Below the pieces are notes generated by a model. It was not told where the DNA came from and did not search any database. It was given only the letters and a program-made list of their open reading frames with translations. A DNA stretch of 64,000 bases from Mobula hypostoma (Eukaryota): assembly GCF_963921235.1 (NCBI RefSeq), contig NC_086107.1, forward strand, positions 110,176,001-110,240,000. Reading direction: 5' to 3'. The translations under genes and the position numbers were made by a program. Below, piece after piece: positions 54,231 through 58,654 of this stretch; the stretch's first letter is position 1; the number at the start of each line of letters is the position of its first letter.

Positions 54231-56678
54231 TAAGTGAGAGAAATCTCACCATCAAAGTCCCATGAGGTCACAGTCTTTATTTTGCCCACATCCAGCGAGA
54301 GACACCCAACCTCACTCATCAGGATCCTCTCAATACCCTAGTAGCCTTTGCCTTTCGTATACAATGCGGTGTGAAGGGAGAAACACAACTGTTAACTACC
54401 ACGGCCACTGAGTGACCTCAATCTTTCCTGTGAATGGAAATTTTAGGGTTAAGTTTGCTCTTGTTTAGAATGCAGAGGGAAACTTAACTGCAAATTTGCA
54501 GGCAGTACAAGTGGAAGTGGAAGACAGGCTGCGGAGAGTAGAAATAAATTACAGAGGGATATTCATAGGTTAAATGTAGAAAACAGATTGTTATTTATAT
54601 GAAGAAAGGCCACAGAAAGATGCAGCACAGGTTTGTGGGTTACTGCACAGGAAACACAGAAAACTGGCATGCAAATGCAGCGGGCAAGATGGACAGCTAA
54701 TGGAATGCCGTCTTTTACTTTCAGGGAGTTAAAGACAGTAAGTTTTACTACTACTGTATAAGACACTATTGAGAGTACATCTAGAGATCTAAAACTACTT
54801 TTTTAACATCACCATTCATATTCCTTCCCTCTATACCTGTGACTTTCAAAGACTTGCTCATACTGTCTACAACTAAACAAACATTGTATTCATACTACCA
54901 ATGTCTCCCTTATAACTCCTTTATCAGCTGTGCTGATACAGCTGTAATCTGGCACCCTATCAGAAGCTGCTGCAAGTCTATGCACATCACATTAAAACCG
55001 GCTGAACGGGGTTTGCCCTCACAATTCTGTGCTGGCTTGCCGTATTTCATCCACTCCCCTCAATTAATCCCGTTGTGGATCAATATTTTTTGAACCAAGT
55101 GATTAGTTGACGGGCTTATCCTTGGGTGGTTCTTTTTTAGGTCCTAGACTCAAAGGAGAACCTAGGACTAGAGACAGCAAAGACCCTGAATAAGGGGTTG
55201 TCCAACTTAGGCAGAGATGGGGTAGAAAGACTTCTCTCAAAGGGTTGAGTGTCTTTGGAATTCCTTACCCGAGAAAGTAAAGCAGGCTGGATACTTGAAT
55301 CCATGATACTGCTATCTACCTCAGCTTTAAATAAGTAATGAAATCGAGGATTATAGGGACAGGCTAGAAAACTAGATGAGGGAAATTGCATCAGTCATGA
55401 CCTTACTGAATATCAGAATAGGCTTGAGGAGGAAAAAGGCCTCCTCTTGTCCCTATTTATATTACATTAAACTGATAGATCTTCAAGTCTGCAGGCACAT
55501 ATCTCTTAAAACTCAGTGGTGTTAAACATAGGTGCTCTATTTTGGGGCGTCATATTGAAAATGTTTTTTTTTGTAGGAAGAATGGAAAATCAGAATATTG
55601 ATTCACTGTAGGTATTTGGAGGGATCTGGGTGTACTCAAGTACAGAACCAGAACATGGCCACAGAAAGACAGAAGTTCAGGTATCTATTGCATAGCAGAG
55701 GAGTACAAACATGGGTAAATCTTACTGCAATTCTACAGGGCACCTGCAAGAGAACTGCATATTTTTTTTGTCTTTATATCCAGGACAACACAAATTCATC
55801 TTGGAGCTGATGTAGCACATGTTCTCCGAAATGTTACCTAAAGGATAGTTTCATGAACTGTTTTTTTCCATGGAGTCAGCAAGATGGAAACAGAATAATA
55901 GATGCTGAGAGTCCTCCTCCTCTAGCTGAAGAACCTAGAACCAAGAAGCTTTTGGTAATGACTATCTGGACTCTCTTTACTTAGATGGCTTATGATCTGC
56001 AATTCTCCACTTTTCAGATTCATGGTGACTTAGTTGCCCAGTAATATACATTACTGAGAGCAACAGTCTTTTTGGGTATGTCTGGAAAATGGACCAAATT
56101 TGTCATAGTCCTACTAAATGGATCAGCAAACTTAAGAGGTCTTTGAGCTAATCTGCTCTTAATTCTTATGCTCTTAGACATTCATACCTCTGACCACCTG
56201 GGTTATTGTTTCAAATTTCATTTGACACCAAAGATATCATATGGATGCATAGGGTTTCAAGATGGGTTAATAGTGGGTTATAAATGTGATACCAAGGATA
56301 CTCCACTGATCAAGAACATGGCTTTTTGAAGAATCAATGTCTTTTTTTAAGATTACAATACATTGGTGGTACATATCATGGCTGGTTTCCCAAAAAGGCC
56401 AGTGGATTTTCTGAATTTATTGTGCCAGTGTAATATATTTGTGATCTGTGTCACCATACACAGGAATTTCTTTGCTCCTTGTTCATTATTAAATTTTCCA
56501 TCATTAATGAAGTATCCCATACTGTTTTGCTTGGATCCAAATTGAATGTAATCAAATCAAAATCACTGATATACAGGGTGAAAAAGCTTGGATCCCTGAA
56601 GAATAAATTGTGCTTTGTTCTGTCAGTGAGGAAACACTTTTAACCCTACTGTCCCAGACTCCAAACAGTTACTTACTG

Positions 56679-58409
56679 TAGGTCTCTTGGTGGCCTCCCT
56701 CACTAGTCCCCTTCTTGCACAGTCACCCAGTTTTAGAGGACGGCCTGTTCTAGGCAGATTTACAGCTGCGCCATATTCTTTCCATTTCTTGATGATTGAC
56801 TTAACTGTACTCCAAGGGATATTCAGAGATTTGGAGATTTTCTTGTATCCATCTCCTGACTTGTGCTTTTCAATAACCTTTTCGCGGAGTTGCGTGGAGT
56901 GTTCTTTTGTCTTCATGGTGTAGTTTTTGCCAGGATACTGACTCACCAGCAGTTGGACCTTCCAGACACAGGTGTAGTTTTACTACAATCAATTGCAACA
57001 CCTTGACTGCACACAGGTGATTTCCATTTAACTAATTAAATGACTTCTAAAACCAATTGGCTGCACCAGTGATGATTTGGTGTGTCATATTAAAAGGGGG
57101 TGAATCCTTATGCAATTAGGTACTTTGTTTTACATTTGTAATTAATTTAGATCACTTTGTAGAGATCTGTTTTTACTTGGATATGAAAGAGTCTTTTTCT
57201 GTTGATCAGAAAGCCAGATTAAGTCCATTATGATTCAATGTTGTAAAACAATAAAACATGAAAACTTCCAAGTGGGGGTGAATACTTTTTACAGGCACTA
57301 TACACAGGAATGGCTTAAAAACAATGAAGTTAATGTACTGGAGTGGCTAAGTCAGAGAGTCCAGACCTCAATCCAATTGAGAATTTGTGGGGCTGTTCAC
57401 TCATGATCCCCATGCAATCTAGCAGAGCTTGAGCAGTTTTGTAAAGAAGAATGGGGGAAAAAGTACAGTGGCCACATGTGCAAAGCTGTTAAGGTACCTA
57501 ACCTCTCAGATTCAAGGCTGTAATTGCTGCCACAGTTTTGTCAATTTTTTCAGTCTTGGTTTGTCCTGTGTTTTGTGATATCACACCAGAGGAAATAATG
57601 TATCATTTCTTAATGCATGCATTACTAAATGACAATAAAAGAGGACGTGTCTTCATAATCCATCATCTACTGAATACTGACTTGAAGGAGGTGAGTAATC
57701 ACACAATCAAATATTTAGTGTTTCCAATAATTGTAATAAATTTAGACCAATTTGTAGAAATTTGTTTTCACTTTGACATAGACATTGTTGTTCATCAGTG
57801 TCAAAAAACCAAATTAAATCCATTATGATTCAATGTTGTAAAACAATAAAACATGAAAACTGTCAAGTGGGGGTGCATACTTTGTATAGGCACTATAGCT
57901 TTGGCTTTATGCTTGGGGTCATTGTCTTGCTGAAAAACAAATCTTCTCCCATTTAGTTCTCTTGCACACTACATCAGGGTTGCCTTGTATTTTGCTGCAT
58001 TCACTTTACTCTCTACCTTCACAAGCCTTCCAGGGCCTGCTGCAGTGAAGCATCCCCACAGCATGATGCAGCCACCACCATGCTTCACAGTAGGGATGGT
58101 GTGTTTTTGATGATGTGCGGTGTTTGGCTTACAGCAAACGTAACGTTTAGCCTGATGGCCAAAAAGCTCAATTTTGGTTTCATCAGGCCATAGAACCTTC
58201 TTTCAGCTGACTTCAGTCTCCCACATTGCTTCTGTCAAACTCTAGCCGCGATTTCATTTGAGTTTTTCTCCCCGCCCCCCAACAGTGGCTTTCTTTTCGC
58301 CATTTTCCCAGTGAGCTGTGACTGGTGAAGCACCTGGGCAGCAGTTGTTGTATGCACAGCCTCACCTATTTCAGCCACTGAAGCTTGTAACTCCTCCAGA
58401 GTTGTCATA
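56679..58409. mobile_element. Rearranged Tc1 transposon in three pieces (A minus 56679-57300, B plus 57301-57895, C minus 57896-58409)
   Basis: A = left TIR + MKTKEHS...EATKRP; C = MTTLEELQ...QQDNDPKHKAKA; B = TQEWLKNN..VLEW..SPDLNPIENLW + right TIR. Confidence 0.9.
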
Positions 58410-58654
58410 CAGTAAGAAGTGTTCCCTGATTTACACCACAGAAAGGCAACTTGGACTACCACCCCCCTTAGACGCCACTGTATTACAGTGCTCCCTCCAG
58501 TGGTTTCTCACTGTGGTTCTGACGAATAGACATCCTGAACTGTTAACTCTGTCTCTCTCGCTCTCCACAGTTGGTACCTGACTTGCTGAGTACGTCCAGC
58601 ATTTCTGCTCTTATTTTGGACCTGCATTTTCCTTTAATGTTCTTGTAAAAAACA

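Follow-up and report, generated by a model that had tools for sequence, protein, structure and literature searches.

A Sleeping-Beauty-like Tc1 copy permuted in three pieces: a candidate product of rearrangement by its own transposase

In a 64,000-base stretch of DNA (C45:110176001-110240000, hereafter the window) from a 3.48-Gb genome assembled in 200 contigs, a Sleeping-Beauty-like Tc1 transposon is present at 56674-58414 in exactly one copy, divided into three pieces that stand in the order A'-C-B' instead of the normal A-B-C. Both ends of the element adjoin one and the same internal TA dinucleotide (TA2), which is present twice, and the outer borders connect a second internal TA (TA1), likewise duplicated, with genomic DNA through sequences that match transposon excision footprints. 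We consider it probable, at roughly 0.6, that a single copy was rearranged by its own transposase and became fixed in the germline, its flank ends having been rejoined with swapped partners.

Results

Structure of the locus

The coordinates given in a preliminary description of this DNA all hold on a second reading of the sequence, and the layout that it proposed (C, inverted B and A, with two direct terminal repeats ending at 57300 and 57895) is borne out by the comparison of repeats. The plus strand of 56666-58421 reads flank ..CAGTTACT, TA, CTG, TA, A', TA, C, TA, B', TA, CAG, TA, flank AGAAGTG.., and its parts are as follows.

56674..56680, no strand: left outer junction TACTGTA (genomic TA 56674-75, CTG 56676-78, TA1 copy 56679-80)
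56681..57300, minus strand: piece A, with the left IR/DR terminal repeat at about 57094-57300 (tip 57300), the leader and the transposase N-terminus MKTKEHS..ATKRP
57301..57302, no strand: first copy of TA2, target-site duplication adjoining the left tip
57303..57895, plus strand: piece C, with the transposase C-terminus TQEWLKNN.., the 3' part and the right terminal repeat (tip 57895); inverted relative to A and B
57533..57663, plus strand: later insert in piece C, a 5'-truncated copy of a much younger, abundant repeat, outside the rearrangement
57896..57897, no strand: second copy of TA2, target-site duplication adjoining the right tip
57898..58407, minus strand: piece B, middle of the transposase gene, from MTTLEELQ.. 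to ..AKA
58408..58414, no strand: right outer junction TACAGTA (TA1 copy 58408-09, CAG 58410-12, genomic TA 58413-14)

On the minus strand, 58409->57896 contains ..MTTLEELQ.. and ends ..GCCAAAGC-TA, the plus strand from 57301 begins TA-CACAGGAATGG (TQEW..), and the minus strand 57302->56679 carries the left repeat and MKTKEHS..ATKRP and ends in AAGAGACC-TA. With piece lengths of 624 (A), 514 (B) and 597 bases (C), shared TAs counted and the 131-bp foreign insert to be subtracted, the three pieces sum to one whole element, circularly permuted and with one segment inverted, from which no sequence has been lost. Its terminal repeats are direct, not inverted: 57206-57302 and 57801-57897 are about 89-91% identical over 97 nt, and the identity over 173 nt is 81.5%. 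Both tips end in ..GGCACTA (57300 and 57895) and are followed by TA at 57301-02 and 57896-97.

The Pfam domain HTH_SB was found on 56623-56979(-) in piece A (E 2.7e-21, 75.5 bits with a cut-off of 43), and HTH_Tnp_Tc3_2 on 58235-58507(-) in piece B reached 28.9 bits, under its cut-off of 31.5. In the single open stretch of piece B that was searched for the DDE catalytic domain (57969-58202, minus), no Pfam family appeared at E 0.01. The long terminal inverted repeats of the family and the HTH domain identify the element as a Tc1/mariner transposon of the IR/DR (Sleeping-Beauty-like) type. The transposase frame is broken by stops and shifts; the locus is inert, with no effect on the host gene in evidence.

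Ordinary copies of the family

The family is very abundant (11,121 first-look candidates, the best 40 of which were scored), and in its ordinary copies A, B and C lie in this order on one strand, TA1 being common to A and B and TA2 to B and C. The breakpoints of our locus are adjacent in the family, each falling on one TA, as the preliminary description had supposed: B comes directly after A in 18 of the 19 copies examined, L015 being without B. The claims that both tips adjoin one duplicated internal TA and that the outer ends break at another likewise stood, with an exact two-base TA overlap between B and C in 11 and between A and B in 9 of these 19 copies, the others ending a few bases short or being truncated. 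An example is the ordinary copy at C96:22769548-22770937, which matches query positions 8-631, 1225-1738 and 629-864 in that order. Six full-length ordinary copies measure about 1.57-1.64 kb; in ordinary copies the terminal repeats are about 210 bp long (A 1-209 paired with C 364-597), and C 1-235 and C 364-597, which at our locus lie on either side of the later insert, are separated by 3-8 bases (L002, L004, L020). Among 47 tips from 41 other loci, 30 start with CAG and 34 are flanked by TA.

Piece A is 87-89% identical to other copies, and the best copies reach 84-86% for B and 83-86% for C. Each segment was also compared with three sets of other copies, and the six ordinary full-length copies were treated likewise, all comparisons being made to individual copies, so that the subfamily test is coarse. 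The median identities of A are 88.3/85.0/84.5% at the locus against about 87-89/84-85/84-85 in ordinary copies and those of B 80.2/85.1/81.1 against 76-85/79-92/78-86; the second part of C (C2) gives 79-83 against 81-86, which is 1-3 points lower, whereas A and B stay inside the ordinary range. In these segment identities, over the three copy sets, there was no sign that A, B and C come from different subfamilies or ages.

These figures bear on the possibility that two or three Tc1 copies were nested in each other in independent events and then trimmed by deletions. The abundance of the family and the occurrence of a nested Tc1 elsewhere in the genome (L058, described below) lend it something. 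Against it stand the similar divergence of the segments, the fact that the pieces sum to exactly one element with breakpoints on the same two of the 97 TAs in the pieces, and the need for three strikes on TA2 together with deletions that end exactly at TA1, each with a footprint; we regard such a history as highly improbable.

As a separate observation, the best matches to piece B cluster in the genome, with 3 of the 39 listed at G000:C12:115.99-117.36 Mb and 5 at G000:C58:73.3-74.9 Mb. The clustered matches are closer to each other than copies elsewhere are (median 91.9% for L035), and these are perhaps Tc1 copies carried by local duplications.

Inner junctions

It is its own left and right ends that the element presents at TA2, and they meet opposite sides of this dinucleotide (CACAGGAATGG.. 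and GCTTTGGC..), which is present twice. This is the pattern of a paired strand transfer of both ends into TA2 in the inversion topology, with a 2-bp duplication. In a symbolic enumeration, the observed order +gL -A +C -B +gR was produced only by the inversion topology (attack on TA2, opening at TA1), in agreement with the inversion-type autointegration proposed in the preliminary description; deletion-type autointegration was rejected, as its topology loses C. The inversion products of Sleeping Beauty (SB) show the same marks, both ends being kept, the orientation of the inverted repeats changed and an internal TA duplicated, according to PMC3952818.

A search for the junctions elsewhere, which the preliminary description had suggested, allowed up to 3 mismatches and found the inner junction words in no other copy of the 3.48-Gb genome. 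One extra match to a junction word, on C80, turned out to be an ordinary copy with a small insertion and not a second rearranged form. At 63 other loci, where 64 tips were detected, no neighbouring tips had direct orientation.

An element could in principle also be permuted with no help from a transposase, by template switching during replication or by microhomology-mediated repair inside a single copy, and the 2-bp TAs at the junctions could have acted as microhomology. The TAs are, however, duplicated and not shared, both exact tips are used and the outer junctions are canonical footprints, which leaves this explanation with very little probability.

Outer junctions

When a Tc1 element is excised, the footprint that remains is the joining of two flank ends, each consisting of TA and a 3-nt CAG overhang from the staggered cut. 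The outer junctions of our locus, TA-CTG-TA (56674-80) and TA-CAG-TA (58408-14), match the canonical 7-bp footprints of this kind, and each of them connects one genomic TA to one copy of TA1. TACAGTA and TACTGTA are given as the canonical SB/Tc1 excision footprints in PMC6943129, PMC5224488 and bioRxiv 10.1101/659086. The preliminary description was silent on the three bases outside each TA1 copy (CTG 56676-78, CAG 58410-12) and on the further TA that follows. The inverted repeat at the two outer junctions (56672-56680 and 58408-58416) is 9 bp long (CTTACTGTA / TACAGTAAG) and so extends 2 bp beyond the footprints. The inferred empty site, ..CT-TA-AG.., is palindromic, and palindromic sites are typical of Tc1/SB targets.

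The presence of two footprints at the outer junctions points to transposase cuts beside both TA1 and the genomic TA, followed by end joining. Four TAs with two footprints imply two target-site duplications, one of the genomic TA and one of TA1, both of them vacated by transposase, and a vacated duplication at TA1 in turn implies that a second pair of Tc1 ends was once located there. According to 10.1101/659086, SB excision needs both the TA and the CAG; the CWG (W being A or T) in the outer footprints means that normal ends were cut beside TA1.

The preliminary description had instead the circle open at a TA and enter the genome. In its simplest form, some unspecified break would open a free inversion circle at TA1, and the circle would then enter a genomic TA, no second pair of Tc1 ends taking part. 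The order and orientation of the pieces do fit an inversion circle cut between A and B and inserted in reverse orientation, and the duplicated TA2 adjoining both tips is expected of such a circle, so that this part of the proposal stands. The outer footprints are not explained by it: the CTG, the CAG and the second TA on each side are left unaccounted for, and nothing would lead a random break to a TA or make it duplicate one. The 64,000 bases of the window contain TACWGTA 17 times, and the chance of two at exactly these positions is about 7e-8. The outer junctions disagree with the entry of the pieces by simple opening of a circle at a TA, and we hold this version to be decidedly unlikely.

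The footprints may be obtained in another way if the ends of a Tc1 resident at the genomic TA, taken from sister chromatids, were inserted into TA1 of a free inversion circle, so that the opened circle came to lie between two copies of the resident element, and if both of these copies were later excised, each with a footprint left behind. Such a cointegrate yields an identical final sequence, and PMC3744419 documents transposition in maize Ac/Ds and Drosophila P elements with ends that belong to sister chromatids or to different elements. It requires, on the other hand, a free circle, an aberrant pairing of ends and two later excisions; no flanking Tc1 copy of the same family remains anywhere in the window, and the ordered assembly at the IR/DR repeats reportedly suppresses aberrant pairing in SB (PMC5224488). 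We consider this course unlikely.

A third possibility involves the flank ends themselves. Once the first strand of a Tc1 nested at TA1 of the circle had been nicked, the flank ends carrying a 3'-hydroxyl (..TA-CAG) would be transferred by the transposase itself, and not by end joining, to a naive genomic TA. With the usual 2-bp stagger (cleavage geometry after PMC6943129), such a transfer predicts the two outer junctions to the base, the left CTG, the right CAG and the duplicated TA among them, and it needs no prior Tc1 at the site. No such activity is described in the SB/Tc1 literature examined, however, and ordinary end joining gives the same sequence with a chance of 1 in 4, and we find it very unlikely. 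If true, it would be a new reaction of Tc1/mariner transposases and a route by which supposedly dead-end circles and other donor DNA return into chromosomes.

TA1 in other copies

Two otherwise colinear copies carry a footprint exactly at TA1, TACAGTA in L055 (G000:C12:150125944-150125970) and TACTGTA in L085 (G000:C2:195225650-195225675), from which it follows that TA1 was entered by Tc1 and vacated at least twice elsewhere in the genome. In a third copy, L058 (G000:C36:88719828-88719852; locus 1065-1875), piece A 175-623 ends at TA1, which here reads TG; next come the right end of an inverted Tc1 (the tip and C down to about position 96) and then unrelated DNA, so that TA1 has either received a nested insertion or become a junction of self-integration. 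The three copies lend indirect support to a former occupation of TA1 at our locus. L058 is the only one of 23 pattern matches for a nested Tc1 at TA1 that holds: 21 had all their mismatches in the flank part and were left out, and the match on C66 was rejected as a chance flank. L084, a candidate for a further footprint at TA1, was set aside as an ambiguous variant of the same length, not a clear case.

In L086 (G000:C2:8576780-8576805), the end of piece B at TA1 gives way to CTGTG and then to GC-rich DNA that is not Tc1. It may be a second TA1 joined to foreign DNA via a footprint-like TACTGTG, or it may be the end of another element.

Flanks and independent contigs

The left flank (579 bases) matches nothing else in the genome, and the right flank is unique for about 250 bases, after which another repeat begins; the flank searches found no paralogous empty site in this genome. 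Both outer junctions are spanned, with 25-30 bases to spare, by Logan contigs of three organisms with different labels, and these compare with the locus as follows.

Run X1: left 56300-56705, 0 differences; right 58382-58700, 0 differences (406+319 bases)
Run X5: left 56300-56705, 4 differences; right 58382-58700, 3 differences and 1 gap (406+318 bases)
Run X15: left 56300-56707, 14 differences; right 58380-58692, 16 differences and 3 gaps (408+313 bases)

Run X1 may be of the same species as the source of the locus. Since contigs of three organisms cross both outer junctions, the insertion is old and fixed, and it predates lineages that differ by 3-5% in these flanks. At 91% likeness the left flank was not covered by run X9 (organism C), and no conclusion is drawn from it.

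The contigs also bear on an assembly artefact within the repeat. The inner junctions do lie in repeated sequence and come from the assembly alone, and an error there might be suspected; nevertheless, the outer junctions are confirmed in three organisms, an assembler error would not yield tips flanked by a duplicated TA together with complementary breakpoints, and the pieces are at most 89% identical to any other scored copy, so that a collapse is unlikely. An artefact is, in our opinion, extremely doubtful.

Later insert and genomic surroundings

The insert at 57533-57663 (131 bp) takes the place of six bases (AAGGTG) of piece C. It is 95-98% identical to 39 other scored copies of its repeat (best of 967 candidates), and the comparison with the contigs showed joints of 57532->57664 with AAGGTG between them. 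Other copies of the inserted repeat run further upstream and have the common 3' end ..CTTCATAATC; runs X1 and X5 contain its words at very high depth, run X9 at a far lower one.

An exon-like open frame at 44809-45249 (-) encodes a fibronectin-III domain (Pfam fn3_4, E 2.4e-42) and places the host gene on the minus strand. The fn3_4 domain presumably marks ATF7IP. The fossil likely lies in an intron; its assignment to an intron of ATF7IP in particular, as in the preliminary description, is plausible in view of the fn3_4 exon on the minus strand; upstream of the fossil no exon was identified.

At 40258-40698 (+) the window has an open frame for a different Tc1-like transposase (..QNPRLTAKNLQEDL..WTDEVKIEHFG..), and the comparison within the window found no DNA similarity of this frame to the family of our locus. 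The repeat that starts about 250 bases to the right of the fossil, at 58663-59000, is a different and abundant one (7,565 first-look candidates, the best 40 scored at 71-83%).

Discussion

The explanation that we favour combines self-integration at TA2 with the misjoining of flank ends at TA1 and at the genomic TA. A second pair of Tc1 ends would have been located at TA1, and the four flank ends, each a TA with a 3-nt CAG overhang, would have been end-joined with swapped partners, the genome to the element and not the genome to the genome. This could have come about by three routes. In the first, which takes place entirely at the locus, an element at the genomic TA would carry a second copy nested at TA1; all four ends would be cut in one burst, the nested copy would leave, the paired tips of the outer element would integrate at TA2 in the inversion sense, and the flank ends would be joined to the wrong partners. 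In the second, one element would integrate into its own TA1, re-cleavage would leave CAG overhangs there, and a second self-integration into TA2 would give a product that could be joined into the donor break or another Tc1 break. In the third, a free inversion circle with a copy nested at TA1 would be linearised by excision of that copy and captured at a Tc1 excision break. A symbolic check gave the same product for the free-circle and in-place routes, and the second route leads to it by the same logic; a free circle is therefore not required. The data do not separate the routes, and we favour the first as the most economical, since it needs one locus and one burst.

Several observations weigh against this explanation. 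Both tips of the locus read 5'-TAG in place of the CAG of the family (..GGCACTG), a form that occurs in 2 of the 47 tips elsewhere. The change may be due to two independent hits, to a short gene conversion between the direct repeats or to survivorship, an allele with two live direct ends being unstable while transposase is present. The outer 97 nt of the repeats are 89% alike at the locus, against 75-86% in the six ordinary copies, which is suggestive at most as a sign of gene conversion. The first part of C (C1) is more diverged than is typical, with medians of 79-84% against 82-93% in the six ordinary copies, though it is only 235 bases long and the ordinary copy L017 comes close to its value. 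In their middle bases (T in the left one, A in the right one) the footprints agree with what the element-side ends would give by themselves, a combination that has a chance of 1 in 4 if both partners had overhangs; it would be certain if the genomic ends had already lost theirs, which may be a hint of an older break on the chromosomal side. The inner junctions are absent from the contigs listed and are known from this assembly alone, neither an occupied nor an empty orthologous site was seen, and there is no nested precursor at the locus. The similarity searches of the genome scored the best 40 out of thousands of candidates each. Finally, the route is read from junction signatures only, and it needs several rare events close in time.

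The autointegration reaction itself has precedents, in cell culture for Sleeping Beauty and piggyBac and in bacteria for Tn10, and excision footprints are textbook knowledge. The intramolecular transposition of Tn10/IS10 reportedly has the same two topologies, inversion and deletion circles, both ends attacking inside the element; that system is bacterial, with a 9-bp duplication and no footprints, in contrast to a Tc1 locus with a TA duplication and footprints. Our locus most closely resembles the inversion products of SB autointegration (Wang et al. 2014, PMC3952818), in which the ends are kept, one segment is inverted and nothing is lost. Those products are described there as extrachromosomal circles from cultured human cells and are called suicidal, whereas our locus is linear, chromosomal, fixed, common to related organisms and bounded by footprints at a second internal TA.

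The footprints set the locus apart in another respect, as a normal SB/Tc1 footprint rejoins the flanks of one excised element and those found here join a genomic flank to a flank internal to the element. In this it is similar to the alternative transposition of Ac/Ds (with sister-chromatid or reversed ends) and to hybrid element insertion of P elements, in which, according to PMC3744419, the ends and flanks of several elements take part in one event. In those events, as at our locus, flanks are joined via a footprint and inversions or permutations result. The Ac/Ds (hAT) and P events of that source, however, rearrange the host flanks, whereas here only the element itself was rearranged. Our literature search, outside which most subscription journals lay, found no natural germline example of Tc1/SB autointegration and no Tc1/mariner case of alternative (mixed-end) transposition. 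A natural, fixed chromosomal Tc1 product that joins both signatures thus seems to be new, as does the implication that autointegration products need not be dead ends.

Direct tips that adjoin a duplicated internal TA, combined with a junction via TACWGTA between an internal TA and foreign DNA, form a signature that can be searched for across whole genomes. Read as the rearrangement of one copy by its own transposase, the locus would show that autointegration happened in a vertebrate-type germline and that its product can return to a chromosome. It would also show that concurrent excision breaks can be repaired with swapped partners, and would thus represent a small-scale, transposase-driven rearrangement.

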